Shown here piece by piece: positions 15,395 to 63,616 of a stretch of 64,000 bases of DNA. A program made the position numbers and the translations under genes. The stretch comes from Candidatus Heimdallarchaeum aukensis. Lineage in GTDB: Archaea > Asgardarchaeota > Heimdallarchaeia > Heimdallarchaeales > Heimdallarchaeaceae. The notes below the pieces were generated by a model that was given only the letters and a program-made list of their open reading frames with translations, had not been told where the DNA came from and did not search any database. Position 1 is the stretch's first letter. Each line of letters opens with the position of its first letter. The DNA lies in the NCBI GenBank assembly GCA_021513695.1, contig CP084166.1, positions 416,001-480,000 of the forward strand, in the 5' to 3' direction.

Positions 15395-17251
15395 TTAATA
15401 TTTCTTTCCACAGATATCAATTTCTTCAAAAGTTTCCTTAACTTTATTTTTCTTTTGTTTTGTTCTGAAGATAATTTCAAATAAAACAATTGAAAAAATG
15501 AAAATCATCCAAACTATACTTTTACTGATAATTTCTTTTCTTCTAGTAATACCTATGTTTGAATTAGGATCTAATGGGTCAAAATCATTCATTACTTCTT
15601 CATAATCAGTATATGAATCTCCATCTGTATCAGGATCGTTGGGATCAGTATTATAAAATTTTACTTCTTCAAAATCGTCCAATCCATCAAAGTCACTATC
15701 TATGCGTAAAGGATTAGTATGGTAAATAAATAATTCTTCATAATCATCTAGTAAGTCACCATCTGTATCACGATTTAGGGGACTAGTATTGTAATTATTT
15801 ACTTCTTCTCCGTCTTTTAATCCATCATTATCAGAATCACTATCATTGGGGTCAGTATCGTACATGTAAATTTCAAGATTATCAGACAAACCATCCAAAT
15901 CTGAATCTTTTAATGTAGGATTTGTTCCATAAACAAATACTTCTACTCCATCATCTATTCCATCATTATCTGAATCATCATTTGTAGGATCTGTTCCATA
16001 AGCGTATATTTCATCACCATCTAATAATCCATCAAAGTCAGTATCATTATTCCTTGGATCAGTATTGTTTTCAAATTCGTGAATATTATATAATTCATCA
16101 TTATCAAAGTCAACATAGGCATCAATTGGATTAGCAACATCTAAACCATAGTAATATTCCCAGTAATTTGTCATTCCATCGCTGTCTAAATCTCCATCAG
16201 CATCGCTTGGATCATCAGGATCTAATCCTACACTAACTTCCCAGTAATCAGGCATTTTATCGTTATCACTATCTCTTACTAGTTTTATGATAAAAGCATC
16301 AATATATCCTTCCAAAGTGGAATTTAAAGGGCTTTTTAAAAGAAGATCATTACTCTCTGTACTCCCTACTATGTAGATAGAACCATCACTATCCACTGCT
16401 ATATCTCTACCTACATCTTCTTCTCTTCCACCAAAATATGTGCTAAAAACTAAATTTGTTCCACTTCTGTTTAACATAGAAACAAAAATATCGGAATAAT
16501 AAGTAGGATTTCTTTCTTCAATTGCATTTTTAATCGGAAAATCATTGCTCCATGTTCCACCTGTTAAATAGACGTTTTGATCATTATCTACCGTTATTGA
16601 CAAACAAGTATCATTTGATGAACCACCTAAAAATGTACTATAGATTATATTATCAGCTGTTGAACTTATTTTTGTTAAAAATATGTTAGAATATCCATTT
16701 AGTGTGTCATCAAAGGCATTTTTTGTTGGAAAGTCAGTACTATTTGTAACACCAGTGATATATACATAACCTTCACTATCAATAGTTATTCCTCTGGCAT
16801 AATCATTATACTTTCCCCCTAAATAAGTGCTAAAGATTAACCCATTTCCTGTAGAGTTAATATAGGATAAATAAACATCAAAAAAGCTTCCACCACCATA
16901 AGTAGAATTAAAAGCATTTACAGTCGGAAAATCATCACTTCTTGTAGATCCAGTAATGAAAATAGAACCATTAGAGAAAACTTTACCTTTAGCAAAGTAT
17001 TCAGCATCACTTCCCCCTATTATTGTGGTGAAAATAGGTTCAAGAGTTTCTCCATCAAGTTTAGTAACAAAAGCATCATAATCATCATCTGAAATATTTC
17101 CAAAAGCAAAGTTGTTGAATAAAGAAGTGCTCATAGTATCTCCAAAAATGTATATATTTCCATCATTTCCTATTTCTATCTTGCGTCCATAATCAAAAAT
17201 ATCCCCGCTTAAATAAGAACTAAAATCTACTAAATAAGGATCAATAATCAA
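15395..17251 (-). CDS. Surface protein, C-terminal segment: SBBP-type beta-propeller repeats plus thrombospondin type-3-like Ca-binding repeats and a C-terminal TM anchor. It is in frame with 17336..18067, so the two are probably one gene.
   Basis: Recurring blocks of the form G-x-I/D-I-D-S-x-G-x-hydrophobic-Y-I-x-G-x-T-x-S-x-D-F-P (SBBP beta-propeller repeat). Multiple D-x-D-x-D-G-L-x-D-x-x-E units follow, then a hydrophobic helix and a basic tail. The annotated start is a TTG that simply continues the upstream reading frame. Confidence 0.6.
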   Translation of the reverse strand: MIIDPYLVDFSSYLSGDIFDYGRKIEIGNDGNIYIFGDTMSTSLFNNFAFGNISDDDYDAFVTKLDGETLEPIFTTIIGGSDAEYFAKGKVFSNGSIFITGSTRSDDFPTVNAFNSTYGGGSFFDVYLSYINSTGNGLIFSTYLGGKYNDYARGITIDSEGYVYITGVTNSTDFPTKNAFDDTLNGYSNIFLTKISSTADNIIYSTFLGGSSNDTCLSITVDNDQNVYLTGGTWSNDFPIKNAIEERNPTYYSDIFVSMLNRSGTNLVFSTYFGGREEDVGRDIAVDSDGSIYIVGSTESNDLLLKSPLNSTLEGYIDAFIIKLVRDSDNDKMPDYWEVSVGLDPDDPSDADGDLDSDGMTNYWEYYYGLDVANPIDAYVDFDNDELYNIHEFENNTDPRNNDTDFDGLLDGDEIYAYGTDPTNDDSDNDGIDDGVEVFVYGTNPTLKDSDLDGLSDNLEIYMYDTDPNDSDSDNDGLKDGEEVNNYNTSPLNRDTDGDLLDDYEELFIYHTNPLRIDSDFDGLDDFEEVKFYNTDPNDPDTDGDSYTDYEEVMNDFDPLDPNSNIGITRRKEIISKSIVWMIFIFSIVLFEIIFRTKQKKNKVKETFEEIDICGKKY

Positions 17252-17335
17252 TTTTTTAGCTGTATCATATTGTTCAATATTAAAAATATAACAGTTGTCA
17301 TCAAGAGTAAAATAAGCGGGGATAATTTTTCCTTC

Positions 17336-18067
17336 TTAAAAAACTTTTAAGTTTCTATCATTAAAAATTCTATATTCTGTATTTCCGATTCTTGAGATTC
17401 CAACTATATTAGTTTCATCTTCTTGTTTTAAGTAAAACTTTGAATCTGATGATAGTTGAACCTTAATAACTGAAGGATCAGCGTTTGGTTCAACAATAAA
17501 TTCGTATTTCAGAAATGAACCTGTAAAATAGTATCTTAAAGATATTCCGGGGTATATATCTTCATATATTATTTCTTGATAACAGCTTATTTGAGTAATT
17601 GCTTTATCTTTGTAAAAAAAGTTAGAATAGTAATTTGCTAATGCTTTTGCCTGTGGTACAACGATATTTGAATCAGGAAAAGAGACATTAATTAAGAAAA
17701 ATTTAGTATTTTCTTCTTTATTCGGTTTAAGATTCTGAATAAAGTAGACCTTAGATTCTCCAAAGTAAACATTTGTTAAAGGAGATTGAGCATAATAAAA
17801 AACTGTCTTGTCAAATATATGCCCTTTATTTTTCATAAAAAAGTATTTAGAATTGTAATCACTGACATAGTTCTCTTCAATTTCGCCGGAAACACTGTAA
17901 AAATTAATTTTTGCTTTATTTTGCTGTTGTGAATATTTTATGCTGTAAGAGCCAACTAAAGTGTTATTTTTGACATAAAATCCAGATAAACTGCTCACAC
18001 TTACAAGAAAGATTAAAAACAAACAAACAATAAATGAAACATTTCCTTTGCTTTGATTTTCATTCAT
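17336..18067 (-). CDS. N-terminal segment (signal peptide plus N-terminal domain) of the same surface protein. It is terminated by an in-frame TAA at 17336..17338.
   Basis: 243 aa with a signal/TM N-terminus. It ends YPGISLRYY...LKYEFIVEPNADPSVIKVQL, typical of the N-terminal domain of SBBP-repeat proteins. The same frame continues in sense after the TAA (RGKIIPAYFTLDDNCYIFNIEQYDTAKKLIIDPYL...). Confidence 0.55.
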   Translation of the reverse strand: MNENQSKGNVSFIVCLFLIFLVSVSSLSGFYVKNNTLVGSYSIKYSQQQNKAKINFYSVSGEIEENYVSDYNSKYFFMKNKGHIFDKTVFYYAQSPLTNVYFGESKVYFIQNLKPNKEENTKFFLINVSFPDSNIVVPQAKALANYYSNFFYKDKAITQISCYQEIIYEDIYPGISLRYYFTGSFLKYEFIVEPNADPSVIKVQLSSDSKFYLKQEDETNIVGISRIGNTEYRIFNDRNLKVF

Positions 18068-32765: not shown

Positions 32766-32804
32766 AAAGAAAAAAGCTAGAAGAAGAACAATGGGGACAA
32801 AAAA

Positions 32805-33068
32805 ATGGAGTCTTTAAAGAGATTATATTTTACAACAATAGTAGGAACAGAACATAAACAAATACCATTTGAAACACCAGGAAGTATAGTTTTCCACGAA
32901 TTAATTGTAGAAGTTTCAAAAAAGTTTGGAATAGCTACTGAACAAATTGCGATAAGCAGTGAAATGGGAGAAACTCTAACAGTTTCAGATTTTCAATCCA
33001 CTGTGGACGAAATAATAAGAAAGTATGGAACAGCTTTTCAAGTTATTAATCGAGGAGTAGTAGGATAA
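32805..33068 (+). CDS. Ubiquitin-like beta-grasp protein (Ub/SAMP-like modifier)
   Basis: 87 aa. Secondary-structure-like pattern collinear with ubiquitin (IAISSEMGETLTVSDF ~ QRLIFAGKQLEDGRTLSDY; TAFQVINRGVVG ~ STLHLVLRLRGG). The C-terminus is G-V-V-G, not a canonical GG. Confidence 0.6.
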   Translation: MESLKRLYFTTIVGTEHKQIPFETPGSIVFHELIVEVSKKFGIATEQIAISSEMGETLTVSDFQSTVDEIIRKYGTAFQVINRGVVG

Positions 33069-33079
33069 AGATTTTAGAG

Positions 33080-33661
33080 ATGGGGGTTCCAAAGATTAGC
33101 GACAGCGATACTTCAACAGTAAAAGGAAGATGGAGAGAAACACCTGCAGAAAGAGAACTAGTTAAGTTTCCAGAAGCTCTGATAAATATAACTCCAAAGC
33201 ATCCTAAATGGACAGAAAGAGTGAAAATAGAAATTTTAAATCTAGCAAAATATGTTCAGTTTTTACAAAGAAAAGGCGGGCATAGCTGGTTCTTTCTTAC
33301 ACCTAGTAAAGATCCTAAGTACAACTTTATGAAATGGGAAGGATATTTGCAAGTGGCTACAAGACCAGAAATTAGGTTTAAAATAGTAATTCTTTTACCT
33401 GGAAACTATCCAAAATCTTGCCCTAGGGCTTTCATTGAAGAAAGAGTAGTAGAATTTGCAGGAAAGATTTATACCAAAAATGTCTGGGAAGAGCCAAATG
33501 GAGAAAAATATTTGATGATATGTCATGACCACATGAGTGAAATTGACGATATTTGGGATCCAAGGTTAACAATTGCACACTTTTTCATAAGAGAAGTATT
33601 CTATTGGTGGGCAGCTCAACAGAACCTAATAATTGAACATTACGACAAAGGAAAGAAATAG
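33080..33661 (+). CDS. E2-like ubiquitin-conjugating enzyme (UBC fold)
   Basis: 193 aa. FKIVILLPGNYPKSCPRAFIEE resembles the E2 Y-P-F-K-P-P-K-V-x-F segment. EPNGEKYLMICHDHM resembles the HPN...G.IC active-site region with the catalytic Cys. It starts 11 nt after the Ub-like stop. Confidence 0.6.
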   Translation: MGVPKISDSDTSTVKGRWRETPAERELVKFPEALINITPKHPKWTERVKIEILNLAKYVQFLQRKGGHSWFFLTPSKDPKYNFMKWEGYLQVATRPEIRFKIVILLPGNYPKSCPRAFIEERVVEFAGKIYTKNVWEEPNGEKYLMICHDHMSEIDDIWDPRLTIAHFFIREVFYWWAAQQNLIIEHYDKGKK

Positions 33662-33836
33662 ATTATTTTTAAGCTATTTTTACTTTTTAAATTTAGAAGT
33701 TTATTTTTATTAAATGGTGTTTACTTGAAAAGCAGAAGCAGAAATAAGAAAGAAGTTATGAGACTAAATAAATCAATGTAAAAAAACTGTTAAATTTAAA
33801 CAAAAAATTTAACTATTTTATCGTTTATATAATTTT

Positions 33837-34874
33837 TTGATGAGTAACAATTTAATATTGAATTTTTTAAATTTTCCACCAAATGTTGATTCTTTTACAG
33901 ATTATGAAAGTAAAATTCATAACGAAATTGAAAATCAATTCAATGATACACGTTCATTACTTCTTGTAATCATGAAGAGTTTGGATGTGGAAGACAAAAA
34001 ACGTTTTTTCAAAATTAAGAAATTTCTTGACAAATTAATTAGTGAGTTCAATTCCTTAAAAACTAGAATTTTTTCATTTGAGACAATTGAAGGAAAATTA
34101 TCTTTCAATCATGAAGTTGTTTTAATTTTAGATTTCTTAATTTTTGAACGTTTATTAGACTTCAATACTACTTTAAGAAATATAGAATCGATAGTTCTAC
34201 ATACTTTGGATAAAGATTACATTCAAGCTCAATCTTTTCAACTTCACAAATCTCTACAAAAACTAGAAAATTTAATTAATTTCCGTAAAGTAGCACATCA
34301 ACTTACTCCATCTGATCAATTGTTTCTGCAATTCTCAGAAGATTTCAGTGCTCAACTCTCTTATCTTGAATCAGTAGGCGTAATTCACCAGTTTGATGAA
34401 CTAAGTAAACCTTCTTTATTGGGAAAGAAAGCATATTATGACAAACTTTCTCAATTGTTTATCTCAACTTGCAATTCTCTACAAAAACAAAATAGATTAA
34501 ACATACCTTTTCTTGAATTTGTAGATGTTTTTCAAAAGAGATATCCAAATGTTGAGTTTGCTGTAGAAGATTTGGACAAAATTGCTTCAAGACTTTCAAA
34601 GACTGGGATGATTTCTGTAGTTACTAATACAGAGCAATCAAAGAAAATTATTATTGGCGAAGACATTGCTTTACAGCAAGAAATACTCAAATTAGCCAAA
34701 GGAAAAGGATACATTACACAAGAAGAATTGATTAGTTCTTTAGGTAAAAGTATAACGGAGATACAATTAACTATCAAGAAACTTGAAGATGCAGGACTAG
34801 CTATCGAAGACGATGACTATGCTTCAGGAAAGAGGATCTATTTTCCAGGTTTAGAAACAGAAATAAAAAGTTAG
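33837..34874 (+). CDS. Hypothetical protein with a C-terminal winged-helix domain. Candidate ESCRT-II (EAP30/Vps22-like) component, by Asgard synteny only.
   Basis: 345 aa. The C-terminal ITQEELISSLGKSITEIQLTIKKLEDAGLAIEDD looks like a winged helix. Its position directly after the Ub operon mirrors Asgard Ub-ESCRT clusters. No motif-level proof. Confidence 0.3.
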   Translation: MMSNNLILNFLNFPPNVDSFTDYESKIHNEIENQFNDTRSLLLVIMKSLDVEDKKRFFKIKKFLDKLISEFNSLKTRIFSFETIEGKLSFNHEVVLILDFLIFERLLDFNTTLRNIESIVLHTLDKDYIQAQSFQLHKSLQKLENLINFRKVAHQLTPSDQLFLQFSEDFSAQLSYLESVGVIHQFDELSKPSLLGKKAYYDKLSQLFISTCNSLQKQNRLNIPFLEFVDVFQKRYPNVEFAVEDLDKIASRLSKTGMISVVTNTEQSKKIIIGEDIALQQEILKLAKGKGYITQEELISSLGKSITEIQLTIKKLEDAGLAIEDDDYASGKRIYFPGLETEIKS

Positions 34875-34883
34875 GGTGAAAAA

Positions 34884-35531
34884 ATGTCATATATTGTAAA
34901 ATTGGGATTAGATGAAAAACAAGAAAATAATGTAACTAAAAGTGAACTTTCAGATGAACTTGTTGCATGGGTTTTTCCCTACGCTTTAGAAAAATGGGAA
35001 AAAATTAATTTAAAGAAAAGAAGGCAAATTTTGGTTAAACTCAATGAAAAAGCTCTCGTTTATAACAAAGAAAACTTCATTCAAGAGCTTTCAAGTGGCT
35101 TATACAAAGTTAATAGAAAAGAAGGTCTTGAAGATCACAAAATTGTTTTCTTAGAAAAAAACCTTATTACTCTTAAATGGGGCATCACTCAAATGCAAGG
35201 AGTTTTAACAAGTGACAATATAAAAGTTGGAGCTTCTGGAACAGTTTCTCTAACTTTATCAGGTGCAGAAGTATTTGTTTTAAACGTTCTGAAAAATAAA
35301 ACAAGTTTTTCAAAGAAAGAACTCCGCCCCATAATAAATAATATCGTCAAAAGTGCATTAAGAGAAGTTTTTCCACAGTATTCTATTGAAGAATTACAAA
35401 AATTAAGTAAAGACGAATTACTTATGTTCTTTGAACCAATAATTGTAGAAGAATTGCAAAAAATAGGTTTTAGTAGCCAAGATATATCATTGGGTGCATT
35501 GGGAATTCCTCCGGAGTATAGGATTTTCTAA
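34884..35531 (+). CDS. Hypothetical protein. Candidate Vps25-like winged-helix protein, by synteny only.
   Basis: 215 aa. It starts 9 nt after the previous gene. The size fits Vps25. Confidence 0.25.
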   Translation: MSYIVKLGLDEKQENNVTKSELSDELVAWVFPYALEKWEKINLKKRRQILVKLNEKALVYNKENFIQELSSGLYKVNRKEGLEDHKIVFLEKNLITLKWGITQMQGVLTSDNIKVGASGTVSLTLSGAEVFVLNVLKNKTSFSKKELRPIINNIVKSALREVFPQYSIEELQKLSKDELLMFFEPIIVEELQKIGFSSQDISLGALGIPPEYRIF

Positions 35532-45535: not shown

Positions 45536-48505
45536 ATGAAAATAAAATCCATGAAATATAAAAAATATTTTTTCTTTGTACTTTTCACGGTCTTAGTTGT
45601 ATTCGCTTATCCACGAAGCTTTTACAACGAAGTTGAAGCAGGATATACACAAACAACTCCTATCAACATATATTCTGATTCAGACTTAGAAAGTTATTCA
45701 TTTCCTGGTACAGGAACTGAAGCTGACCCTTATATTATAGAAAATTATAACATCACAGTTACTAGTGGTTATGCTATTTCAATTAGAGCAACAACAAAAT
45801 ATGTCATTATAAGAAATAACTATATTATAGGGTCTGATACTGGCAATGGAATGTACATTTTTAGTGTTGCACCAAACACTGTTCATATAATAAATAACAC
45901 CGTTGTCAATGCTTATACTGGAATTTATGTAAATACTGAAGGACAAATGATAATAGAGAATAATACTGTAACAGGAGGAGAGTCTGCCTATTATTTCTCT
46001 TCAACTGGAAATATTAATTTTACTAACAATAAGGCAATCAATCCTAAAAAATATGGTTTAAGAGCTTATAATTTAAATAACTTCAGAATGGCTAATAGTA
46101 CTTTAATAGGCGCTGGAGTAGGTTTTTCTACAAGTAGTACATCCTTTTATGATAATTACTATTTTGATAACAATTCAATTAATAACAAGCCTTTGATGGT
46201 AGTTTATTCTTCATCAGATCTTGTTTTTGACAAAAATCAAAATGGTCAGATATTAATTATAGACAGCACGAACATCACAGTCAAAAATTATGTCTCAAGC
46301 GAAAATACTTTTGGAGTTTATTCCTACTATTCTGATAAAATAACAATAGAGGATAGTTTTTTTTCAAAAGCAGTTTCTTCAATTAAAGCAGAATATTCTT
46401 CAAATATTGAAATAAAGAATGTAAAAATTAGTAACACATACGAGTATGGAATGAATATTCGCAATATAGATGGAATTTCGATTGAAGATACTATAGTTGA
46501 AGATTCTAATAAAGGGATATATGCAAGAGGAATAAATAATTTAGAAATAACAAATACTACTTCCACTAATCATGAAAATGATGGCTTGTACCTGTGGTAT
46601 GTAAATAATGCAAATATTTCTAGTTCGTTTTTCGCAAATTGTAAGAACGGATTAGTTGCAAGAAGTTCAACTAACATAAGATTAGAAGAAAACTCAGCTT
46701 CAAACTGTAGTTATACAAGTTTTACTCTAATTTATCTTGAGAATGTAACAGTAAAAGATAACTTAATGGAATCTGGGATAAAACTTAACCATTACAACGT
46801 TGAATGGAGCTACGAATTCAGTAATAATACAATAAAAGGAAAACCTTTAGGTGTTTTTTATAATAAAACAGGGTTAACTATTGACTCAACTTATTCGCAA
46901 TTAATACTAGTAAATTGTACAGACTTTATAATCAATAATGCGTATTTTTCTCAAGTAGTAAGAGGAATTTACATTCTTTACGGAGAAAATATTTCTATAA
47001 ATAATATCTCGATGTACAACGTCTTTGAAGGTGGACTATTAGTAGAGTATTCCAAGAAAATAAGCATTCAAGATTTAAATGTAAATGGAGTAATAGGTAA
47101 TGAAGCTTATGGTATTTACACTTATAATGTAACTTCGGTGTTTCTTAATCATTCTATTTTTACACTGTGCGGAGATTATCCTTTTTATGGAGAAGAGATT
47201 GCAGATGCTATAATTTCTTATAATATATTTAATAATAGCACTAATAATGTGTTTTACATTTACAATGGCTTTAATCTTTCTATTTTTGGAAATGATTTTT
47301 TGTTTAATGATTATGCACTTTATGTTGAATTTTCAAACGAAATAGAATTCTACAACCTTGAATTAGAAATGGGAAATTGTTACTCTGAATGGAACGGTTC
47401 AACTAGATATCCTATTGAAACAGATAGTGGCTACATTTATGATGAATTTCCATTAAATGATACTGACAGAGATAAGCTTAACGACAGTTTAGAAGTGTAT
47501 AGTTACAATACTGACCCATTTCTTGCAGATACAGATTACGATATACTCAGTGATTATGACGAAATAATGAACTATGGAACTGACCCAAACTCGGTAGATT
47601 CAGATAATGATAATATGCCAGACAAATGGGAAATAGAAAATAATCTTAACCCAATCGAAGATGACTCCTCAGAAGATCCTGACGATGATGATTTGTCTAA
47701 CATAGAAGAATATAATTCACACACCAATCCCAATTCTGCTGATACAGATTCTGATGGTATGCCTGATGGTTGGGAAGTGGAAAATGAATTAAATCCTTTG
47801 ATAGATGATGCTGATGAAGACCCAGATAATGATGATCTAACTAATTTAGAAGAATACTCTAATAATACTGACCCTAACTCTGCAGATACAGATTCTGACG
47901 GTATGCCTGACAAATGGGAGGTAGATAATAATCTTGACCCAACTAAAGATGATGCTGATGAAGACCCAGATAATGATGATCTAACTAATTTAGAAGAATA
48001 CACTAACAACACAGACCCTAACACCAATGACACAGATGGTGATGGTATGTTTGATGGTTGGGAAGTAGATAATAGTCTTGATCCTCTAACTGATGATGCT
48101 GATGAAGATCCTGATAATGATGGACTAACAAATCTAGAAGAACATACAAACAATACTAACCCAAATGATGAAGATACGGATTCAGATGGTATGCCTGATG
48201 GATGGGAAGTGGAAAATGGATTAAATCCTCTGATAGATGATGCTGAGGAAGACCCAGATAATGATAGATTAACTAACATACAAGAATACTTGAATAACAC
48301 AGATCCCAACAATCCAGATACTGATGGAGATGGATATTCAGACTCTGAAGAAATAGAGAAAGGCTCTAACCCTACCGATGCTACAGATAAACCTCTTAAT
48401 TTGGGATTGATTCTTGGTTTATCCATTGGTATTCCAACTGTTCTTATTGCAGTCTTCTTATTTATAATGAAGAAAAAAGGTTTACTCTTCTTTAAGAAGA
48501 AGTAA
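45536..48505 (+). CDS. Large surface protein: N-terminal signal/anchor, right-handed parallel beta-helix region, six tandem 41-42-aa TSP3-like Ca-binding repeats, and a C-terminal TM anchor
   Basis: 989 aa. Many beta-helix rungs (NNTVVNAYTGIYVN, NNTVTGGESAYYF, and so on). The repeats read DTDSDGMPDGWEVENxLNPLxDDADEDPDNDDLTNLEEY. The C-terminus is a hydrophobic helix plus KKKG. Confidence 0.7.
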   Translation: MKIKSMKYKKYFFFVLFTVLVVFAYPRSFYNEVEAGYTQTTPINIYSDSDLESYSFPGTGTEADPYIIENYNITVTSGYAISIRATTKYVIIRNNYIIGSDTGNGMYIFSVAPNTVHIINNTVVNAYTGIYVNTEGQMIIENNTVTGGESAYYFSSTGNINFTNNKAINPKKYGLRAYNLNNFRMANSTLIGAGVGFSTSSTSFYDNYYFDNNSINNKPLMVVYSSSDLVFDKNQNGQILIIDSTNITVKNYVSSENTFGVYSYYSDKITIEDSFFSKAVSSIKAEYSSNIEIKNVKISNTYEYGMNIRNIDGISIEDTIVEDSNKGIYARGINNLEITNTTSTNHENDGLYLWYVNNANISSSFFANCKNGLVARSSTNIRLEENSASNCSYTSFTLIYLENVTVKDNLMESGIKLNHYNVEWSYEFSNNTIKGKPLGVFYNKTGLTIDSTYSQLILVNCTDFIINNAYFSQVVRGIYILYGENISINNISMYNVFEGGLLVEYSKKISIQDLNVNGVIGNEAYGIYTYNVTSVFLNHSIFTLCGDYPFYGEEIADAIISYNIFNNSTNNVFYIYNGFNLSIFGNDFLFNDYALYVEFSNEIEFYNLELEMGNCYSEWNGSTRYPIETDSGYIYDEFPLNDTDRDKLNDSLEVYSYNTDPFLADTDYDILSDYDEIMNYGTDPNSVDSDNDNMPDKWEIENNLNPIEDDSSEDPDDDDLSNIEEYNSHTNPNSADTDSDGMPDGWEVENELNPLIDDADEDPDNDDLTNLEEYSNNTDPNSADTDSDGMPDKWEVDNNLDPTKDDADEDPDNDDLTNLEEYTNNTDPNTNDTDGDGMFDGWEVDNSLDPLTDDADEDPDNDGLTNLEEHTNNTNPNDEDTDSDGMPDGWEVENGLNPLIDDAEEDPDNDRLTNIQEYLNNTDPNNPDTDGDGYSDSEEIEKGSNPTDATDKPLNLGLILGLSIGIPTVLIAVFLFIMKKKGLLFFKKK
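47597..48360 (+). repeat. In-frame tandem DNA repeats of about 123-126 bp (six copies) encoding TSP3-like units
   Basis: Repeated strings such as gatgatgctgatgaagacccagataatgatgatctaactaatttagaagaata recur with near-identity. Confidence 0.6.
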
Positions 48506-52551: not shown

Positions 52552-54459
52552 TTAGTAGATTTTTTTCAGTTGTTTAAGGAGAGGAGTATAGATATCATAC
52601 TCTTCTTTTAGATCTTTTGCTATTATTAGTTCTTTCAGATTCTGTGCAGATTGTAAAATAAAAGTGGGTGCAGTACTCTCAATTAATGGATATTGTTTTG
52701 ATTTATATCCTGCTAAAACAGTATTGTTCTTTAGGCAAATAGAAGCCAATAGTTTAATTTCCTCTTCTTCGTTTAGTTCTTCTCCTTTTTCAAATAACCA
52801 GTTTATAGAACCTTTTTCTGCTATACTGCCTACCCAGATTAATAGAAGATAATCATAGATATCGTTAGGAAAGCCTAAACTGTTGTATTTGTTAAAAACA
52901 GAGAATAAATTAGCAAATTGTTCTACTTCTTTATTATCTTTACTTACTATCATTATAGAGATAAGAAAATCTTTTTGAACATCTGTGAGAGTATCTAAAA
53001 GCTCTTTCTTTATCTTTAACAATTCATCTTTCTTCTCTTTAATTTCTTCATAACTTTCATTGTTTATTTTGTAATTTCCAATTATCTCATCAAGTTGTTT
53101 TTTCCTTTCTTCTTCTAAACCTTCTAAATCTTTTGTATAATTTTCAATAATCTCTTTTAGAGTTTCTTTAGCTTCTTCTACTTCTTTCTCTGTAACTTCT
53201 GCATTAGTGATGGTCTTTCCTTGCATTGCAGCTTTTGTCTGTTTTTGCCAACTAAGTGCGTCTTTTAAACTTTTATCGTTTAATAAAGAGTTGATCATCT
53301 TTGCAACTATGTATTTAATTTCAACGATGGAATTAGCATCTCTTGTAGCTATTGAAAGAAATAGGTGTAAAACATTAGGCATCAAATTATAAGGATCAAT
53401 TTGTTGATTTCCTCTCAATGCACTAAAATTAAAGTTAGATAATGCCCATTCATATAAAGAACTTCCAACGAAGTTTGAAGGGGGATTAAGGGCAGAAAAT
53501 ATAGGTAAAGAAGTATACATGTTACCTATTGACAATAAAACATTATGCCAACCAAAGGTCGAAGAATCAAATTCTTTAATTCTTATTTCTTTTCCAGAGA
53601 TAAGGTATTCTTCAGTCAAATAATAAATTAAATGTTTATTTAAGCTGACTGAAGATAGAGAATCTGCTTCATATTTGGTCTCATTACTGTTTAATACAGA
53701 TATTAGCTCTATATTGTTAAATAATTCTGCTTGATTAGCGTCATCAAGTATTTCTTTTATTGATTCTTGGTTTTCAGGGTATAATGCTTCTAGAATGTGG
53801 TATATCCAGTGAATAATGTAAGCATAAACATTCTCATTTTGTTTAAGCACTTTTCTCCATTCAAACCATTGTTTTAGTCTATTTAGATAGATTTCACTCA
53901 TCTTTTCAATATCTGAATCACTTAATTCTTTTGTTGAATAACGCAATGGAAAGATTGAAACAGGTTCCTTATTATTAAACAGCACTTCTTTAATGTCTTT
54001 AATTAGTGTGTTAATAATTAGTTCAAGATCCATAATTGCATAACGTGAGATTACTTTTGCTTCTTTAAAATAATCAAAAGAGCAGCTTCCATTTCTCAAG
54101 AAAATGGGTTCATGAATGTAACTAACAATTTTATCAAAGAATTCTTTCCCCTTTTCATCTAATTGAGCAATAAGTTCTGATACTTCTTGAAAGATATAGG
54201 CATTAAGAAAAGCGTTAAACGCTGTTCCAATAATTTTTGCATTTGAAGCATAACTCTTAATAATTTTATTAATCTCTGGACTATTCTTTTTTATTTTACT
54301 TAACTCAAAGTCATCTGGAATCTTAACTAGTTCTTTATTACTATCTCGTGGCCTAAGAAATTTTCCTTCACTTTGAAAGACAAGTAGTTTGTTCTTTGTA
54401 TCCAAACCAAAAATAACTTCCTTGTCTAGCAATTTTCCTTCAAAAATTTTTATATCCAT
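52552..54459 (-). CDS. Hypothetical cytoplasmic protein, 635 aa
   Basis: Long uninterrupted ORF with normal composition and a central coiled-coil stretch (EEAKETLKEIIENYTKDLEGLEEERKKQL). No recognisable family motif. Confidence 0.4.
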   Translation of the reverse strand: MDIKIFEGKLLDKEVIFGLDTKNKLLVFQSEGKFLRPRDSNKELVKIPDDFELSKIKKNSPEINKIIKSYASNAKIIGTAFNAFLNAYIFQEVSELIAQLDEKGKEFFDKIVSYIHEPIFLRNGSCSFDYFKEAKVISRYAIMDLELIINTLIKDIKEVLFNNKEPVSIFPLRYSTKELSDSDIEKMSEIYLNRLKQWFEWRKVLKQNENVYAYIIHWIYHILEALYPENQESIKEILDDANQAELFNNIELISVLNSNETKYEADSLSSVSLNKHLIYYLTEEYLISGKEIRIKEFDSSTFGWHNVLLSIGNMYTSLPIFSALNPPSNFVGSSLYEWALSNFNFSALRGNQQIDPYNLMPNVLHLFLSIATRDANSIVEIKYIVAKMINSLLNDKSLKDALSWQKQTKAAMQGKTITNAEVTEKEVEEAKETLKEIIENYTKDLEGLEEERKKQLDEIIGNYKINNESYEEIKEKKDELLKIKKELLDTLTDVQKDFLISIMIVSKDNKEVEQFANLFSVFNKYNSLGFPNDIYDYLLLIWVGSIAEKGSINWLFEKGEELNEEEEIKLLASICLKNNTVLAGYKSKQYPLIESTAPTFILQSAQNLKELIIAKDLKEEYDIYTPLLKQLKKIY

Positions 54460-56111: not shown

Positions 56112-57629
56112 ATGAATTTGCTAAAAACTGTAGTAAAAATAACTCCTGTCTCAATATTGCGTAAAGTTCAATCATTTTCACTAAAAAAACCTAGCAGAAT
56201 TAAATTTTTATTCAAAGTTTCTAATGAAGAAGCTTTAGTCGAGATAGGAAAAAAACTGGCTTATAATAATTTCAAAAAAGTATCAAAGAATACACCCGCT
56301 TACAAGAAGTTCTTGGAGAGTAATGGAGTCAATGCAAAGAAAGTTAATAGCTTTGAAAAATTTATTGAAATTGTTCCTACAACAGACAAAAACAACTATA
56401 TTGCTAAATATCCGATGGATGAACTCTGTATCAACGGAGACCTTTCTCCACTAGCAATAATTGACAGAAGCTCAGGATATTCGGGTAAATCCATTTACTT
56501 TCCGATATCCAAAAAAGAAAACCTCTTTGATGAACTAGTAATGGCAAATTGGTTTAAAACACAATTCAATATCTCAACTAAAGATTTACTCATAAATTGT
56601 TTCTTTTTAGGTTCATGGGTAGCAGGAATAAAGATAGGAAACTCAGCTAGAATGATAGGAACTACAATAAATACAGGACCTCGTTTAGATGAAATTGTAG
56701 AAACAATATTCGATCTCGATAGATACTATGAAAGAATAATTATTTTATCCTATCCGCCCTTTGCAATGATGCTTGTTTACAAACTAATAGAAGCAGGATA
56801 TGACTTTGAAGGTAAAAACTTCTTGTTTTTGGTAGGAGGAGAAGGATATAATCTGGAGTTCAAACAAAAATTGCAAGAACTTACAAAAAACAGTAGCGAA
56901 ATTTTTGGAGCTTTTGGTAGTACTGAAACAGGAATAAGAATCGGAAATGAAACAGCTGATACACACATGCTTAAACAAATGGCTGCATCAAACAAGGAAT
57001 TCTGCAAGAAAATGTTTGGAAAAGAATTCCCACCAAATATCTTTCAATATGACCCAACAAATGTTCATTTATTCACAAAGAAATATAAAAACGGAAAAGA
57101 CGCTCTGGTTTTCACTTCAGCATCTAAAAGAGCAGTTCCTGTAATTAAATATAACCTAAAAGATGAAGGAGGAGTACTAACACAAAAAGAAGTAAAGAAA
57201 ATAATAAAAGAAGTATTTAACATGGATTTCAATTTTAAACTACCTTTACCAATCTTTTATGTTTATGGAAGAGTAGATGATACAATATCCATAGCAAGTG
57301 CAATATTCTATCCTCATCAAATAAAATCAGGACTGTTGGAGTTCATGGATAATGTAATAGATTACAGATTGGAATCAAAAACAACAGATACAGGAGTAAT
57401 CTATCCTGCAGTTCATGTAGCGGTAAAAGATAAAAGAAAAGCTTCCAAAAAGAAAATAGAAGAAAGTATTTACAAAACGTTACTAAAATACAGTAGCACC
57501 TACTCAGAATCAATAAAAGAAGGAATTGCAGATAGACCTATAGTTTTCCTATACACAGAAAAAGACTTCCCTTTTGAACTAAACGAAATAACAAAAAATC
57601 AAGTAAAAGAAAAACATTTAGTAAATTAA
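56112..57629 (+). CDS. GH3-like / ANL-superfamily adenylate-forming enzyme (acyl-amido synthetase or F390-synthetase-like)
   Basis: 505 aa. RSSGYSGKSIYFP resembles the GH3 motif T-S-S-G-T-S-x-G-x-x-K-x-x-P. FGSTETG resembles the second adenylation motif (Y-G-S-T/S-E). Confidence 0.5.
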   Translation: MNLLKTVVKITPVSILRKVQSFSLKKPSRIKFLFKVSNEEALVEIGKKLAYNNFKKVSKNTPAYKKFLESNGVNAKKVNSFEKFIEIVPTTDKNNYIAKYPMDELCINGDLSPLAIIDRSSGYSGKSIYFPISKKENLFDELVMANWFKTQFNISTKDLLINCFFLGSWVAGIKIGNSARMIGTTINTGPRLDEIVETIFDLDRYYERIIILSYPPFAMMLVYKLIEAGYDFEGKNFLFLVGGEGYNLEFKQKLQELTKNSSEIFGAFGSTETGIRIGNETADTHMLKQMAASNKEFCKKMFGKEFPPNIFQYDPTNVHLFTKKYKNGKDALVFTSASKRAVPVIKYNLKDEGGVLTQKEVKKIIKEVFNMDFNFKLPLPIFYVYGRVDDTISIASAIFYPHQIKSGLLEFMDNVIDYRLESKTTDTGVIYPAVHVAVKDKRKASKKKIEESIYKTLLKYSSTYSESIKEGIADRPIVFLYTEKDFPFELNEITKNQVKEKHLVN

Positions 57630-57795: not shown

Positions 57796-60700
57796 TTATT
57801 CTTTCTTCTTACCTTCACCTATAATTTCCCAATCACGATATTGGCTAAGTAAACGGTCAATCTCATTATCAATATCAATAGTTTCTTTTCTTACAAAAGA
57901 TTGCTCAAGTTCATAATATTCACCAATATCAGGGTTAGCTTGTAGGATATCTTTGAGATACTCTTCAACAACAGATTTAGAAAGACCGCTAAGTTCAGAA
58001 ATTCGTTGCAAAGTAACAGAAATATTAGGTTTGAATTGGTTAAGCAAGTTAATGAGAGTTTTATAATCTTCTTCTCTCTTCAATGCTTTCATGTACTCAG
58101 ATTTAGTTTTATAGCCTTGAGCAGAGATTTCTTCCCACTCAGACTTAGTTTTAAAACCTAACTTCATTGCTGTATACATTTCTTTGATAGAAGAAAAACC
58201 AAAAGAAGAAGCTCTTTTACGAAGATAAAGTCTAATTCCTATAAAAGTCAAAAAAGCAACAGCACCAGTAACAATGACAGCACCTGTAACTATTGAAATA
58301 ATTGTGAGTATTCTTTTAACTTTCAATTTGTGTTCTAAATTCGATTTAGGATTGAGAGGATCAAAACCGTTTTCTATTTCTTTACCATCATTTTCTCCAT
58401 CTCCATCAGTGTCAGAATTGTTAGGGTCTGTTCTATAAATCTTTACTTCTTCATAATCAGTTAATCCATCACTATCAGAATCACTACTTGTGGGGTTAGT
58501 AAAATATTCTTTAATCTCTTCATAATCAGTTAATCCATCATTATCTGTATCAGTACTATTAGCAAACGTACCAACATTAAATTCTTCAAGATTGGTTAAA
58601 CCATCACCGTCTAAATCAGAGTTGGAATCATCTGTTAATGGGTCTAATCCAGAATGAACTTCATAACCATCAGGCATACCATCTTCGTCAGTGTCAGAGT
58701 TGTTAGCGAAAGTGCCAAGAGTATATTCCTCAAAATTAGATAAATTATCGTTATCGAAATCAGAATTACTATCATTAACAATTGCGTTTGTACCTGTTTG
58801 AACTTCCCACAAATCATCCATCAAGTCACCATCAGTATCAGTACTATTAGCAAACGTACCAACATTAAATTCTTCAAGATTGGTTAAACCATCACCGTCT
58901 AAATCAGAGTTGGAATCATCTGTTAATGGGTCTAATCCAGAATGAACTTCATAACCATCAGGCATACCATCTTCGTCAGTGTCAGAGTTGTTAGCGAAAG
59001 TGCCAAGAGTATATTCCTCAAAATTAGATAAATTATCGTTATCGAAATCAGAATTACTATCATTAACAATTGCGTTTGTACCTGTTTGAACTTCCCACAA
59101 ATCATCCATCAAGTCACCATCAGTATCAGTACTATTAGCAAACGTACCAACATTAAATTCTTCAAGATTGGTTAAACCATCACCGTCTAAATCAGAGTTG
59201 GAATCATCTGTTAATGGGTCTAATCCAGAATGAACTTCATAACCATCAGGCATACCATCTTCGTCAGTGTCAGAAACCAAAGGATCAGTACCGTAAGTGT
59301 TAACCTCTTCTCCATCAGTTAAACCATCACTGTCAGTGTTAGAAGTAGTAGGATCAGTTGAATAAACATTGATTTCACTAAAATCATCTAATCCATCACT
59401 ATCAGTATCAGAAGTAGTAGGATCAGTTGAATAATTTACTACTTCATCAAAATCATCCAATCCATCACTGTCAGTATCAACCTTACTCATATCTGTCCCT
59501 AAAATCTCCTCCTCATGGTCAAACAATCCATCATTATCAGTATCTAAATATTCCCCTGTCCTTTGATTGTTAACCGAATCAGTATAGAGTGGAGCATATC
59601 CAAGGCCAATAGAATTCCAAATAGATACTCCCATGTTGGAAACATCACCGTACCCGGCAAGTATTTCTAAGGAAGAATCGTTATCGACATCAGCAACAGC
59701 TAAAGACCAAAAAGTACCACTTGTCGTTTTTGGCCAACCAGGAACAACAGTACCATCACTATTCCAAATAACCACTCCACCACCAAAGTCAATACGATAC
59801 CCGGCAATTATCTCAAGTGCTGAATCGTTATCGACATCTGCAATAGTTAAAGAATGAACTTCACCACTTGTTTCACTTGTTGTTTGTGGCCAACCAGGAA
59901 CAACAGTACCATCACTATTCCAAATAATTACGCCACCACTGTAGTATTCACCGTACCCAGCAATTATTTCTAATGTTGAATCATCATCAACATCTGCAAC
60001 AGCTAAAGAATAAACATAACCACTTGTTGTTTTTGGCCAACCAGCAACAACACTACCATCACTATTCCAAATAACTACTCCACCACCATATCCTGCAATT
60101 ATTTCTAATGTTAAATCATCATCAACATCTGCAACAGCTAAAGAACGAACATCATCACTTGTTTTTGGCCAACCAGGAACAACAGTACCATCACTATTCC
60201 AAATAATTACTCCACCACCATATCCTGCAATTATTTCTAATGTTGAATCATCATCAACATCTGCAACAGCTAAAGAATAAACATAACCACTTGTTGTTTT
60301 TGGCCAACCAGCAACAACACTACCATCACTATTCCAAATAACTACTCCACCATAACCAGCATCACGATATCCTGCAATTATTTCTAGTTCTGAATCACCA
60401 TCAACATCAGCAAGAGCTAAAGAATAAACATAACCACTTGTTGTTTTTGGCCAACCAGCAACAACACTACCATCACTATTCCAAATAACTACTCCACCAT
60501 CATCAACATATCCTCCTCCTGCGACTATCTCGAGTTTTAAATCACCATCAACATCAGCAAGAGCTAAAGAATAAACATCTCCGCTTGTAGTTTTAGGCCA
60601 ACCAGGAATAACAGTACCATCACTATTCCAAATAACTACTCCACCATAATACCCTGCAAGTATTTCTAGTTCTGAATCACCGTCCACATCTCCAACAGCT

Positions 60701-62244
60701 AAAGAATAAACATAACCGCTTGTAGTTTTTGACCAAGAAAATAAAGTTGAATAATAATTAATAAAAGAGTTATAGCGACTGTTACTTGTATTATAGTTAG
60801 TTGTTTTCCAATCAAAAACATTATCACAGCTAATTTGAGCAGCTAAAATATAACCATAATAATCTGAATAGTATAAATATTTGCCTTGAATAGTAATTAT
60901 TCTGTTTAAATATAAATAACCTGATAATATTGCTTCATTCGTGGATGAAGAATAAAAATGCTTTGCATAAACATTTGAAGAGGAACAATATAGTAATTCC
61001 CAATTATAATCATTGTCCACATCGGTAAGTATAGGTTCTTCTTGAATATTTAGACCTAAGGAACTACTATACTCATTTAATATCTCTCCGGTGAAAGAAA
61101 AACTTTTTTGTTCTCCGTTTGTTGATAGAGTAACTATTTCATACTCTCTATCCCAATTAATATCAACAATTATAGGACCTAACCACTCTGAATCACCTGA
61201 AGAAGTAAGCCAAGAATGAATAGTAGTACCATTATTTGATAAAAGATAAAGATTTCTTCCTGCAGGGCAAACAATGTCTATTTTACTGTCTTTGTTGATG
61301 TCTGCAACTGCAAGAGGATGAGTAATAGGCTCTGTTAAATCTTTAGGAAAATTTGAGATGATGTCTCCATTTCCTTTCCACGCGTAAACTTTTCCATCGG
61401 TACTACCTACAATAACATCTTTGGAACCATCATTGTCTACATCAGCTAAAACTGGTGCAACTATTACTTCTCCTCCTGTTGTTTTAGGCCAACCAGCTAA
61501 AAGATTTCCACTTCCATCAAATGCATAAACTTTTGAACTGTTAGATCCAACCACTATCTCATTTTTATCGTCTCCATTAATATCTCCAACTGCTAATGTT
61601 TCTTCTACTGGTCCCTCACAATTGACTGGCCAACCTGGTATACTAGTACCATCACCGTAAAATGCGTAAACCGAACCATTAGCTGCTCCTATAATTATTT
61701 CTTCAGTTGCACTATTTCCATCTATATTAGCTAACATTGGTGTAGATATTAAAGCAACACCTATGTTTTTTCCATCTATCCAATTTGAAGATTCTGTACC
61801 ATCTATCTCGTAAACTCTTATTATGCCATTTAACGTTCCTACAACAATTTCATAATTTCCATCTCCGTCTATATCCCCTGCTCCAGGTCCTCCTTTTAAC
61901 TCTCCCCCTACATATATTGGCCAACTACCAAAAGAATTGAGAGATTGAGAGATTTTTTTACCTGAAAAATTGTTATCTAAAAGTTCAGAACGGGAAGAAG
62001 TTGTTTTGATCTCTATGTCGTTGTTCGCTTCTTCAACTCTTTGTAAATCTGTGTGATAATCATTATTTTGACTTACATTATTTTGACTTACATTACTTTG
62101 TTGTGAATCTAAAATGATATTATTAAAATCTTTCATCACTAGAGAATTTGTAGTCATTGAACTTGTAATTATAATTAGTAATGCTACTACCATTCCTGAA
62201 TATTTTGATTTCCCTCTAAAACTTTTTTTTATTCGTTTCATCAT
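57796..62244 (-). CDS. Giant integrin-like type I membrane protein: signal peptide, FG-GAP/VCBS beta-propeller repeats, TSP3-like Ca-binding repeats including near-perfect 96-aa tandem units, a TM helix, and a 170-aa cytoplasmic tail
   Basis: 1482 aa. FG-GAP signatures (IADVDGDGNYEIVVG, VGDINGDDKNEIVVG, LADVDNDGSKDVIVG). About 9 repeats of GGVVIWNSDGSVVAGWPKTTSGYVYSLAVADVDDDSxLEIIAGY. DTDSDGLDDFDE-type units. A TM helix (ILTIISIVTGAVIVTGAVAFLTFIGI), then a basic-start cytoplasmic tail. Confidence 0.75.
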   Translation of the reverse strand: MMKRIKKSFRGKSKYSGMVVALLIIITSSMTTNSLVMKDFNNIILDSQQSNVSQNNVSQNNDYHTDLQRVEEANNDIEIKTTSSRSELLDNNFSGKKISQSLNSFGSWPIYVGGELKGGPGAGDIDGDGNYEIVVGTLNGIIRVYEIDGTESSNWIDGKNIGVALISTPMLANIDGNSATEEIIIGAANGSVYAFYGDGTSIPGWPVNCEGPVEETLAVGDINGDDKNEIVVGSNSSKVYAFDGSGNLLAGWPKTTGGEVIVAPVLADVDNDGSKDVIVGSTDGKVYAWKGNGDIISNFPKDLTEPITHPLAVADINKDSKIDIVCPAGRNLYLLSNNGTTIHSWLTSSGDSEWLGPIIVDINWDREYEIVTLSTNGEQKSFSFTGEILNEYSSSLGLNIQEEPILTDVDNDYNWELLYCSSSNVYAKHFYSSSTNEAILSGYLYLNRIITIQGKYLYYSDYYGYILAAQISCDNVFDWKTTNYNTSNSRYNSFINYYSTLFSWSKTTSGYVYSLAVGDVDGDSELEILAGYYGGVVIWNSDGTVIPGWPKTTSGDVYSLALADVDGDLKLEIVAGGGYVDDGGVVIWNSDGSVVAGWPKTTSGYVYSLALADVDGDSELEIIAGYRDAGYGGVVIWNSDGSVVAGWPKTTSGYVYSLAVADVDDDSTLEIIAGYGGGVIIWNSDGTVVPGWPKTSDDVRSLAVADVDDDLTLEIIAGYGGGVVIWNSDGSVVAGWPKTTSGYVYSLAVADVDDDSTLEIIAGYGEYYSGGVIIWNSDGTVVPGWPQTTSETSGEVHSLTIADVDNDSALEIIAGYRIDFGGGVVIWNSDGTVVPGWPKTTSGTFWSLAVADVDNDSSLEILAGYGDVSNMGVSIWNSIGLGYAPLYTDSVNNQRTGEYLDTDNDGLFDHEEEILGTDMSKVDTDSDGLDDFDEVVNYSTDPTTSDTDSDGLDDFSEINVYSTDPTTSNTDSDGLTDGEEVNTYGTDPLVSDTDEDGMPDGYEVHSGLDPLTDDSNSDLDGDGLTNLEEFNVGTFANSTDTDGDLMDDLWEVQTGTNAIVNDSNSDFDNDNLSNFEEYTLGTFANNSDTDEDGMPDGYEVHSGLDPLTDDSNSDLDGDGLTNLEEFNVGTFANSTDTDGDLMDDLWEVQTGTNAIVNDSNSDFDNDNLSNFEEYTLGTFANNSDTDEDGMPDGYEVHSGLDPLTDDSNSDLDGDGLTNLEEFNVGTFANSTDTDNDGLTDYEEIKEYFTNPTSSDSDSDGLTDYEEVKIYRTDPNNSDTDGDGENDGKEIENGFDPLNPKSNLEHKLKVKRILTIISIVTGAVIVTGAVAFLTFIGIRLYLRKRASSFGFSSIKEMYTAMKLGFKTKSEWEEISAQGYKTKSEYMKALKREEDYKTLINLLNQFKPNISVTLQRISELSGLSKSVVEEYLKDILQANPDIGEYYELEQSFVRKETIDIDNEIDRLLSQYRDWEIIGEGKKKE
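58537..59275 (-). repeat. Near-identical 288-bp tandem DNA repeat (about 2.6 copies) inside the giant surface-protein gene
   Basis: The string aacttcccacaaatcatccatcaagtcaccatcagtatcagtactattagcaaacgtacc begins at 58801 and again at 59089. Hundreds of bases are identical between copies. Confidence 0.7.
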
Positions 62245-62491: not shown

Positions 62492-63616
62492 ATGATTTCT
62501 TATTACTCTATAGGTTTATTCTTATTTGAGCAACTTACTTTTATTACTAGCAGCATTATTTTGTTTAGAACTTACAAGCAGACTCGCTTTCTTTCTCACT
62601 TCCTTTTGGGTACTAGCTATCTTTTGTGGGTTTTCAATTCTATAGGAAGATTCATTACTTCTTTTTTCAGTGAAAATGTAATAATCTTCGACAATACTCG
62701 ACTTATTTCACTTATTTGGATCATTGTTAACTGTTTGTTAATTCTTGGAATGATTTTCGTTTTCTATTCTTTTATTTATTTCAAGACTAACAGATTACAT
62801 CCTATAATAAACATAGTTAGTTTTTTAGGAGGAGCATTATTTCTTGCATTTATAATACCTGATTTCACTGAATTGACTTACTCTGAACAACTTGGAGCTT
62901 GGTCTGCGAAATATAGTATTTGGATATCTGTTCTTGTTATTCCAATGCTTTTATTCTTCATTTTTTCTTTTATTCTTCCCATTTCTACAAAAATTGTTAG
63001 AACTACTGACAAAGATATTCGTAAGCAACTATTTGTGCAGATAGTCGGACTTATTATCGTAATTATCTGGGCATTTTTCGCTGGTTTTACTAGCAATGCT
63101 GTTCTTCGAGCTGTTCGTCCTTTCCTTATGGCAACAGGCTGGTTTATCTGGTCTTTAACTTTGATAATGGATCCTTTCAACATAATGATTTCTAACGCTA
63201 AAATTAGTCAATTATTGATTACAACTACTAGCGGTTTACCAATCTATTATGATGACTTCACTTTTGATGAAAAAGAAGTAAAAAGTGAGATTTCTGCAGA
63301 TCTAGCTTCAGGTTTAATTTCAGGAGTTACCCAAGCTCTAGAGCAAATAATGGAAAGAAAATCGGAATTAAACACTGTAGTATATAAAGACAAAGTTATA
63401 GGTACTACTGCAGTAGGCTATCTTCAAGCATATATTTTTGGAGAAAGATTTGATAAAACTTTAGAAACTGTATTAAATGTTCTTCTAAGAGAAATACAAG
63501 ATAATCCAGCTCTTGCTTTAAAAATCACTCCCAACTTTGTAGATCTAGATGGGGCTTCAGGAAAAATCTTGAAACTCATAGTTGAAAAAAATCTAAAGAG
63601 AATATTAGTAATTTAA
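62492..63616 (+). CDS. Hypothetical membrane protein (N-terminal polytopic domain) with a roughly 130-aa C-terminal cytoplasmic alpha/beta domain
   Basis: 374 aa with six to seven TM helices. The soluble C-terminal domain (SADLASGLISGVTQALEQI...VVYKDKVIGTTAVGYLQAYIF...) is possibly roadblock/LC7-like. That assignment is a weak guess. Confidence 0.4.
   Translation: MISYYSIGLFLFEQLTFITSSIILFRTYKQTRFLSHFLLGTSYLLWVFNSIGRFITSFFSENVIIFDNTRLISLIWIIVNCLLILGMIFVFYSFIYFKTNRLHPIINIVSFLGGALFLAFIIPDFTELTYSEQLGAWSAKYSIWISVLVIPMLLFFIFSFILPISTKIVRTTDKDIRKQLFVQIVGLIIVIIWAFFAGFTSNAVLRAVRPFLMATGWFIWSLTLIMDPFNIMISNAKISQLLITTTSGLPIYYDDFTFDEKEVKSEISADLASGLISGVTQALEQIMERKSELNTVVYKDKVIGTTAVGYLQAYIFGERFDKTLETVLNVLLREIQDNPALALKITPNFVDLDGASGKILKLIVEKNLKRILVI

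Follow-up and report, generated by a model that had tools for sequence, protein, structure and literature searches.

We describe a gene in a 64,000-nucleotide stretch of the genome of Candidatus Heimdallarchaeum aukensis (positions 416,001 to 480,000 of contig CP084166.1, assembly GCA_021513695.1; hereafter the window), which encodes at 57796..62244 of the minus strand a protein of 1482 amino acids (aa). Its features support a type-I membrane protein with FG-GAP propellers, thrombospondin type-3 (TSP3) repeats, one transmembrane (TM) helix, and a cytoplasmic tail. We consider this protein to be, with a probability of roughly 0.6, a calcium (Ca)-dependent surface adhesin or receptor of a Heimdallarchaeaceae archaeon, whose tail would dock a cytosolic partner. 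The winged-helix (WH)-like module of the tail appears to define an unannotated domain family, to date encountered in Asgard archaea alone. Judged by its sequence, the protein is a member of the FG-GAP superfamily and not of the integrin alpha family, and it shares with integrins only a general design of propeller head, stalk, TM helix, and tail.

The gene is an uninterrupted open reading frame (ORF) with an ATG start and a stop codon at 57796-57798; its span and length are those given in an earlier note made from the DNA letters of the window, and all of its features given below lie on the minus strand. The layout is monocistronic, the gene being convergent with an ORF at 56112-57629 and divergent from another at 62492-63616. 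The G+C content of the window is ~30%, and a scan for sigma-70 promoters and terminators stayed at background level, though the sigma-70 model does not apply to archaea. A look-up for exact copies of the protein sequence gave none. The closest homologs (P0001-P0005, 60-77% identity) come from metagenome-assembled genomes (MAGs) of Candidatus Heimdallarchaeaceae; P0001 is the sole full-length ortholog, and the other four stop within the repeats. Searched as a whole against Pfam, the protein matches FG-GAP_3 (E 2.8e-25, seven stretches), TSP3_bac (1.8e-14), and FG-GAP (5.8e-5). Pfam was also run on three regions separately (residues 100-480, 500-892, and 892-1302), and all those matches exceed the curated cut-offs.

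Hydropathy reveals two hydrophobic segments, at residues 17-37 and 1307-1341. The N-terminal region (residues 1-37, 62134..62244) consists of a K/R-rich beginning followed by the hydrophobic core at 17-37, whose position is conserved in orthologs. We take it for a signal peptide of the Sec type or a signal anchor, which agrees with the signal peptide proposed earlier, and cleavage is presumed. It is followed by an N/Q/S-rich linker (residues 38-104, 61933..62133) that is poorly conserved, with 25-27% identity to P0002-P0005, and that contains a 15-bp tandem repeat (x2.7) at 62061-62100; the corresponding beginning of the AlphaFold head model has a predicted local distance difference test score (pLDDT) below 50.

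The head is made up of two FG-GAP propellers. Propeller 1 (residues 105-500, 60745..61932) comprises seven diverged blades of ~47 aa, an extra beta-hairpin region at ~437-470, and a low-confidence linker at 469-499. Residues 100-480 match FG-GAP_3 at 3.9e-17 and FG-GAP at 1.9e-9, and the blades, which lie within 105-432 and have a mean identity of 34% to one another, hold seven Ca-type loops ([DN]x[DN]x[DN]xxx[DE], of the DxDxDGxxE type), one per unit. The strand pattern of the AlphaFold2 (AF2) model likewise shows seven units at a pLDDT of ~90, and this is the best-conserved domain across orthologs (68-87%). Propeller 2 (residues 501-890, 59575..60744) is built of near-identical FG-GAP blades with the pattern WPKTTSG..SLAVADVDxDSxLEIIAGY..GGVxIWNSDGxVVxG, each with a DVDxDxxLE loop, which makes eight further Ca-type loops. 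Residues 500-892 match FG-GAP_3 at 5.7e-28 and FG-GAP at 1.3e-15, and their AlphaFold model is most like 8-bladed propellers. Both the FG-GAP Ca loops and the beta-propeller fold anticipated in the earlier note were thus recovered, and Pfam assigns the repeats to FG-GAP rather than to PQQ or WD40; the protein is a member of the FG-GAP / VCBS beta-propeller superfamily. The same note had counted about nine near-identical 44-aa blade-like repeats as a kind apart from the FG-GAP loops. Near-identical repeats do exist, but they number eight, measure 44-54 aa, and are themselves the FG-GAP blades of the second propeller.

The blades of propeller 2 have a mean pairwise identity of 77% (range 64-100%), versus 72% and 65% to the blades of two orthologs, and their DNA is a 147-bp tandem unit (x5.7) of 84% identity. 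Because likeness within the protein slightly exceeds likeness to orthologs, and because blade number varies among orthologs, these values point to recent amplification or homogenisation of the propeller 2 blades.

Between the head and the membrane lies a stalk (residues 891-1305, 58330..59574) of ~17 bacterial-type TSP3 repeats by motif count, in keeping with the TSP3-like repeats noticed before; residues 892-1302 match TSP3_bac (PF18884), the model of tandem ~22-aa DxDxDG...D repeats predicted to bind Ca, at 7.3e-30 and 102.9 bits, where 25 bits are required. Within the stalk, a 96-aa (288-bp) unit occurs in 2.5 copies whose DNA is 99% identical (58543-59274). The TSP3 region also matches the NCBIfam models for CglD and MtsD (NF033765 and NF047639; E 1.6e-21 and 2.9e-16), both below the family cut-offs, with 76 bits where 800 are needed and 58 where 400 are needed. 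The single TM helix (residues 1311-1341, 58222..58314) lies in the second hydrophobic segment, reaches a hydropathy peak of 2.36, is followed by RKR, and is conserved in the homologs P0001, P0124, and P0125. A single TM helix had been predicted, and the segment at 1307-1341 speaks for it and against a wholly external protein. No catalytic domain occurs among the Pfam matches of the protein or its parts.

The tail that follows the TM helix is 141 aa long (residues 1342-1482), shorter than the 170 aa estimated earlier. Its juxtamembrane segment (residues 1342-1392, 58069..58221) holds two to three copies of a short helical motif, which we term GF (GFSSIKEM.., LGFKTKSEWEE.., and QGYKTKSEYMK..), drawn by AF2 as helices with a pLDDT of 88-91. 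An acidic WH-like domain of an unannotated family (residues 1393-1453, 57886..58068; LINLLNQFKPNISVTLQRISELSGLSKSVVEEYLKDILQANPDIGEYYELEQSFVRK) comes next, and the protein closes with a C-terminal helix (residues 1454-1482, 57799..57885; IDNEIDRLLSQYRDWE, then a terminal GEGKKKE motif) that AF2 models at low-to-moderate confidence. The 141-aa tail gave no significant Pfam or NCBIfam match, and no Pfam RING match was found in the protein itself, whose four Cys are all in the ectodomain. The tail is conserved at 69% to P0001 over its full length and at 91-94% to closer fragments.

Word-indexed searches with the tail, and with a profile of the WH family, returned near-identical fragments only; it takes an exhaustive search to bring the family to light. 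An exhaustive HMMER search with a profile of tail-only sequences (the protein and close fragments) yielded 98 representative proteins at E<=1e-3, 15 of them at E<=1e-10, and 90 of the 98 cover a core of ~60 aa with the consensus lLnqfrPnIPVxLxRIaEL...vE..Lk.IL...P.lGEYLeLEQVFIrk. Residues R1414, G1441, Y1443, E1447, and F1450, all present in our protein, are 89-98% conserved in the family. No relative of the WH domain by sequence turned up in the PDB, and Pfam thresholds were reached for it in none of 33 family members. All 11 clusters with a source name are Asgard: nine from Heimdallarchaeota, Heimdallarchaeaceae, or Hodarchaeales and two from Odinarchaeota.

The company that this domain keeps is distinctive. 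Some family members are surface proteins that combine TSP3 repeats and a TM helix with a head of the FG-GAP, WD40, or beta-helix type (two WD40-headed members share one 370-kb contig), while many are cytosolic, with the WH domain placed after LRR, HEAT, or TPR repeats; in many members a zinc ribbon and a RING finger come after it. When Pfam was run on 93 members, zf-RING_2 was found in 22, Prok-RING_1 in 9, LRR and TSP3_bac in 10 each, HEAT and TPR in 6 each, and WD40 in 5, and a looser pattern count raises the number of members with a RING finger to 42. Members lacking a RING usually end as our protein does, with a helix and ..WE..GxGKK, and the ending ..IDxLLxxYxxWExxGxGKK recurs in P0125-P0130, P0140, P0173, P0174, and others. 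The GF motif (G-F/Y-x-[ST]-x-x-E-[WYF]-x-x-A, with a period of ~17 aa) is present in 1 to >10 copies, with arrays of at least 10 in some proteins (e.g. P0133, P0134, and P0211), and it has no Pfam model. Since three matches (P0179, P0196, and P0218) contain GF motifs without a WH core, the GF repeat occurs independently of the WH domain. In the literature on Asgard integrins, TSP3, or WH-RING proteins, we found nothing specific to this architecture. Having neither a Pfam nor an NCBIfam entry, the tail domain is a new family worth curating.

We hypothesize that a Sec-type leader exports the N-terminal part of the protein, so that the two propellers, one conserved and 7-bladed and the other recently amplified and 8-bladed, would form a ligand-binding head at the cell surface with one stabilising Ca loop per blade. 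The TSP3 rod of ~415 aa would keep this head off the membrane, the single TM helix would anchor the protein, and the tail would present its juxtamembrane GF helical repeats, its acidic WH-like domain, and its C-terminal helix ending in GEGKK to the cytosol. The WH module is most likely a protein-protein docking module that ties the surface protein to a cytosolic partner common to the WH-RING proteins, because it also forms the tail of TSP3-stalked WD40 and beta-helix proteins and sits between LRR, HEAT, or TPR repeats and the RING in cytosolic ones. The same type of stalk and anchor carries other heads in four further proteins of the window, which we count in favor of a surface adhesin or receptor. 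Several points weigh on the other side. The AF2 model of the tail has a pLDDT of 74.5 and draws the expected beta-wing as a helix, and the best structural neighbors of the WH domain are DNA-binding regulators. Orientation and signal cleavage are deduced from hydropathy and from FG-GAP and TSP3 modules being known to lie outside the cell. Moreover, the contig of P0001 has a different neighborhood from the window, so no operon partner is indicated and none can be named. Finally, bacterial FG-GAP propellers often accompany secreted peptidases (S8, C25, and M6 are Pfam partners among the homologs), for which reason the head could scaffold something other than adhesion.

The overall topology had been called integrin-alpha-like in the earlier note, and the protein might in that case be a true integrin alpha homolog or precursor, pairing as a heterodimer with a subunit of the beta-like (VWA/MIDAS) kind and using its tail to connect ligand binding with the cytoskeleton. 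Metazoan integrin alpha subunits do resemble it in their N-terminal 7-bladed FG-GAP propeller with DxDxDG loops, their single type-I pass, and their tail; the host is an Asgard archaeon, and a paper (PMC9258230), citing Liu et al. 2021, reports a listing of integrin-repeat proteins among Asgard eukaryotic signature proteins. The resemblance ends there. Where integrins have thigh, calf-1, and calf-2 legs, our protein has a TSP3 rod, and neither the whole protein nor its parts matched Integrin_alpha2 (thigh/calf, PF08441) at E<=0.01. It has a second, 8-bladed propeller, and it carries Ca loops in every blade whereas integrins carry them in three to four. The short talin- and filamin-regulated peptide tail of integrins is replaced by a 141-aa module from the unrelated WH family; there is no Pfam match to Integrin_alpha (GFFKR, PF00357), and the residues after the TM helix are RKRASSFGFSS. 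The ORFs scanned in the 64-kb window included none of the VWA or integrin-beta-like kind. Against the PDB, the single sequence finds ITFG2 only, and a profile of the orthologs finds ITFG2 (3e-4) and CRTAC1 (6e-4) with no integrin alpha at E<=0.01. Once the five Heimdallarchaeaceae orthologs are set aside, the named homologs are for the most part bacterial FG-GAP proteins, many of them fused to peptidases, and a scan of genome contigs with the generic motifs AGDIDGDG and TPMLA[ND]ID gave, among the matches listed, almost only bacterial FG-GAP loci (22-39% identity) and no Heimdall genome. In 2011, bacterial integrin-type propellers had been described as having a Ca loop in each blade and as occurring in tandem (Chouhan et al., PMC3192720), and the FG-GAP/VCBS supercluster is widespread (Pereira & Lupas 2021, PMC8023676). 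The superfamily and the type-I topology therefore stand, while the legs, the GFFKR motif, a beta subunit among the window ORFs scanned, and a sequence link to integrin alpha structures in the PDB were not found; membership in the integrin alpha family is largely refuted, and descent as a homolog or precursor is highly improbable. A match to integrin alpha-V in the PDB arose only with a profile that included distant multidomain homologs and was contaminated by PQQ-propeller and kinase regions, and it is uninformative.

A membrane-tethered transcription factor would fit a WH tail that binds DNA, whether still attached to the membrane or once regulated proteolysis has freed it, upon ligand sensing by the propellers, and the tail does show weak, sub-threshold Pfam matches to HTH_IclR and HTH_40. 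The domain is acidic, however: its core averages a net charge of -2.5 across the family, and residues 1393-1482 of our protein come to ~-6 by direct residue count; four of its most conserved residues (G1441, Y1443, E1447, and F1450) fall in the wing/core segment rather than in a basic recognition helix; and its usual partners, RING, LRR, HEAT, and TPR, form a protein-interaction or E3-ligase architecture. The WH domains of ScpB and DDRGK1, which do not bind DNA, score equally well in the structure comparison. Charge, conservation pattern, and partner domains together disfavor DNA binding, which we regard as improbable. Somewhat less doubtful, though still unlikely, is a structural protein of the envelope or matrix, or one that serves enzymes outside the cell as a scaffold, that does not signal and uses its tail for anchoring or sorting only. 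The TSP3 stalk and TM helix are common to five proteins of the window, two of which are almost tail-less; in bacteria, FG-GAP propellers frequently share a protein with peptidases and other hydrolases; and blade and TSP3 arrays of recent amplification, with copy numbers that change from one ortholog to another, are typical of envelope proteins under diversifying pressure. A structural role is possible for the ectodomain, but it leaves unexplained a tail whose level of conservation, within a domain family with near-invariant residues, exceeds what an anchor needs, and an enzymatic scaffold would have to be reconciled with a protein in which no catalytic domain is found.

Among the closest known systems, bacterial integrin-type (VCBS-superfamily) FG-GAP propeller proteins, including the Vibrio cholerae biofilm adhesin Bap1 (6mlt), and the vertebrate proteins CRTAC1 and ITFG2 have blades of ~45-50 aa with one Ca site each and tandem propellers, as here, and the latter two are weak sequence matches to our protein. 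The bacterial examples in PMC3192720 have no TM helix, whereas the protein described here is archaeal, TM-anchored, raised on a long TSP3 stalk, and equipped with a structured cytoplasmic domain. The Myxococcus proteins CglD and MtsD bear similarly long bacterial-type TSP3 arrays in a setting of cell-surface adhesion or cohesion, but the repeats alone are in common, those proteins being lipoproteins or outer-membrane-associated without a TM helix and WH tail. DDRGK1 of the UFL1/DDRGK1 UFM1 ligase (8c0d) offers a membrane-anchored WH scaffold; the likeness is at the level of fold only (13% identity), and its topology is opposite, with an N-terminal anchor and no ectodomain.

A more speculative extension, which we put forward tentatively and consider rather unlikely, takes the LRR, HEAT, and TPR repeats of the cytosolic members as substrate-recognition repeats and the WH module as a docking site within the Asgard ubiquitin system, which would couple TSP3-stalked receptors with interchangeable heads (FG-GAP, WD40, or beta-helix) to ubiquitylation. 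Given an E1/E2/JAB/ESCRT-II cluster in the window, the link might reach further, to ESCRT-dependent sorting or outside-in signaling. The proposal is drawn from domain co-occurrence and from the window itself encoding such a system, and from nothing else. That Asgard-type ubiquitin/ESCRT cluster lies at 30830-35531 on the plus strand and consists of a ThiF/E1-like gene (30830-31693), a JAB/MPN gene (31707-32765), a UFC1-like E2 (33080-33661), and an EAP30/Vps36-family ESCRT-II-like protein (33837-34874), after which comes an SPFH/Band-7 protein. If the proposal were true, the arrangement would prefigure, in archaea, surface receptors regulated by ubiquitin. More generally, the conserved tail domain gives a testable handle on whether Asgard surface receptors connect to ubiquitin/ESCRT machinery. 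As an "archaeal integrin" the protein matters little, its head and stalk being common prokaryotic adhesion modules and features that define integrins, such as the thigh/calf legs and the GFFKR motif, being absent.

Heimdallarchaeia are among the archaea considered closest to eukaryotes, and they appear to build their surface repertoire from one stalk-and-anchor cassette with interchangeable heads, which bears on partner contact. The earlier note had named four other TSP3 surface proteins in the window, and all four are present, at 15395-17251 (minus strand), 23064-25118, 25303-27288, and 45536-48505 (all plus strand), with a TM helix after each TSP3 block. The two tandem paralogs at 23064-25118 and 25303-27288 have a signal, a beta-helix/NosD head, TSP3 repeats, a TM helix, and a helical tail of ~260-280 aa, and the protein at 45536..48505 has a signal, a long beta-helix/NosD region, TSP3 repeats, and a C-terminal TM helix with almost no tail. 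The remaining one, at 15395..18067 on the minus strand when read with its upstream ORF, combines a signal peptide, DUF7948, an SBBP propeller, TSP3 repeats, a TM helix, and a tail of ~20 aa. Heads across the five window proteins are thus FG-GAP, an SBBP propeller, and beta-helix/NosD in three cases, and tails are the 141-aa WH tail, ~20 aa, ~270 aa coiled (the tandem pair), and a few aa. No motif is common to the tails of the five, a point that the earlier note had suggested checking. What that note took for a large paralogous surface-protein family holds for the TSP3 stalk and C-terminal TM helix, which all five possess, but not for the heads, which differ, or the tails, which are unrelated; a shared stalk-and-anchor cassette moved by domain shuffling, not whole-protein paralogy, is what the domain layouts indicate.

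Two further observations concern these neighbors. The tails of the tandem paralogs are highly similar to each other, have no Pfam match, and are unlike the tail of the FG-GAP protein; they represent a further conserved, uncharacterised tail carried by this cassette. At 15395-18067, the DUF7948 ORF and the ORF with the SBBP, TSP3, and TM segments are in the same frame, parted by one in-frame TAA at 17336-17338 (...AAAGTTTTTTAAGAAGG...). This region is one surface-protein gene of ~890 aa, and the stop codon reflects either a pseudogene, a sequencing error, or readthrough.

The repeats of the FG-GAP gene also affect how it is recovered from assemblies. Two short-read contigs (L001 and L002, from Logan SRR15988954 and SRR15988958) carry the neighboring aminotransferase gene, and both end 780 nt into the gene. 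These ends show repeat-driven assembly breaks. Because four orthologs and both short-read contigs break in this gene, such genes are systematically fragmented in MAGs, and with the gene broken or truncated in short-read assemblies this class of protein is under-counted in MAG-based surveys. The opposite concern, that the repeats are themselves a frameshift or assembly artefact, was rejected: the ORF is unbroken, and orthologs have the same organisation with differing repeat numbers. The gene next after the aminotransferase differs between the contigs, its product being 438 aa in L002 and 505 aa in the window and L001.

Among the other genes of the window, the divergent neighbor at 62492-63616 (plus strand) encodes five hydrophobic segments and a soluble C-terminal domain of ~130 aa without a Pfam match, and by gene content its counterpart is absent from the contig of the P0001 ortholog. 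Two ORFs near the FG-GAP gene, at 52552-54459 (minus strand, 635 aa) and 56112-57629 (plus strand, 505 aa), have no significant Pfam match, and genes with products of 635 and 505 aa are also called on contig L001. At 2656-8445 on the minus strand, a 1929-aa ORF contains two full UvrA domain sets (UvrA_inter x2, UvrA_DNA-bind x2, and ABC_tran), and its product appears to be a tandem-fused double UvrA.

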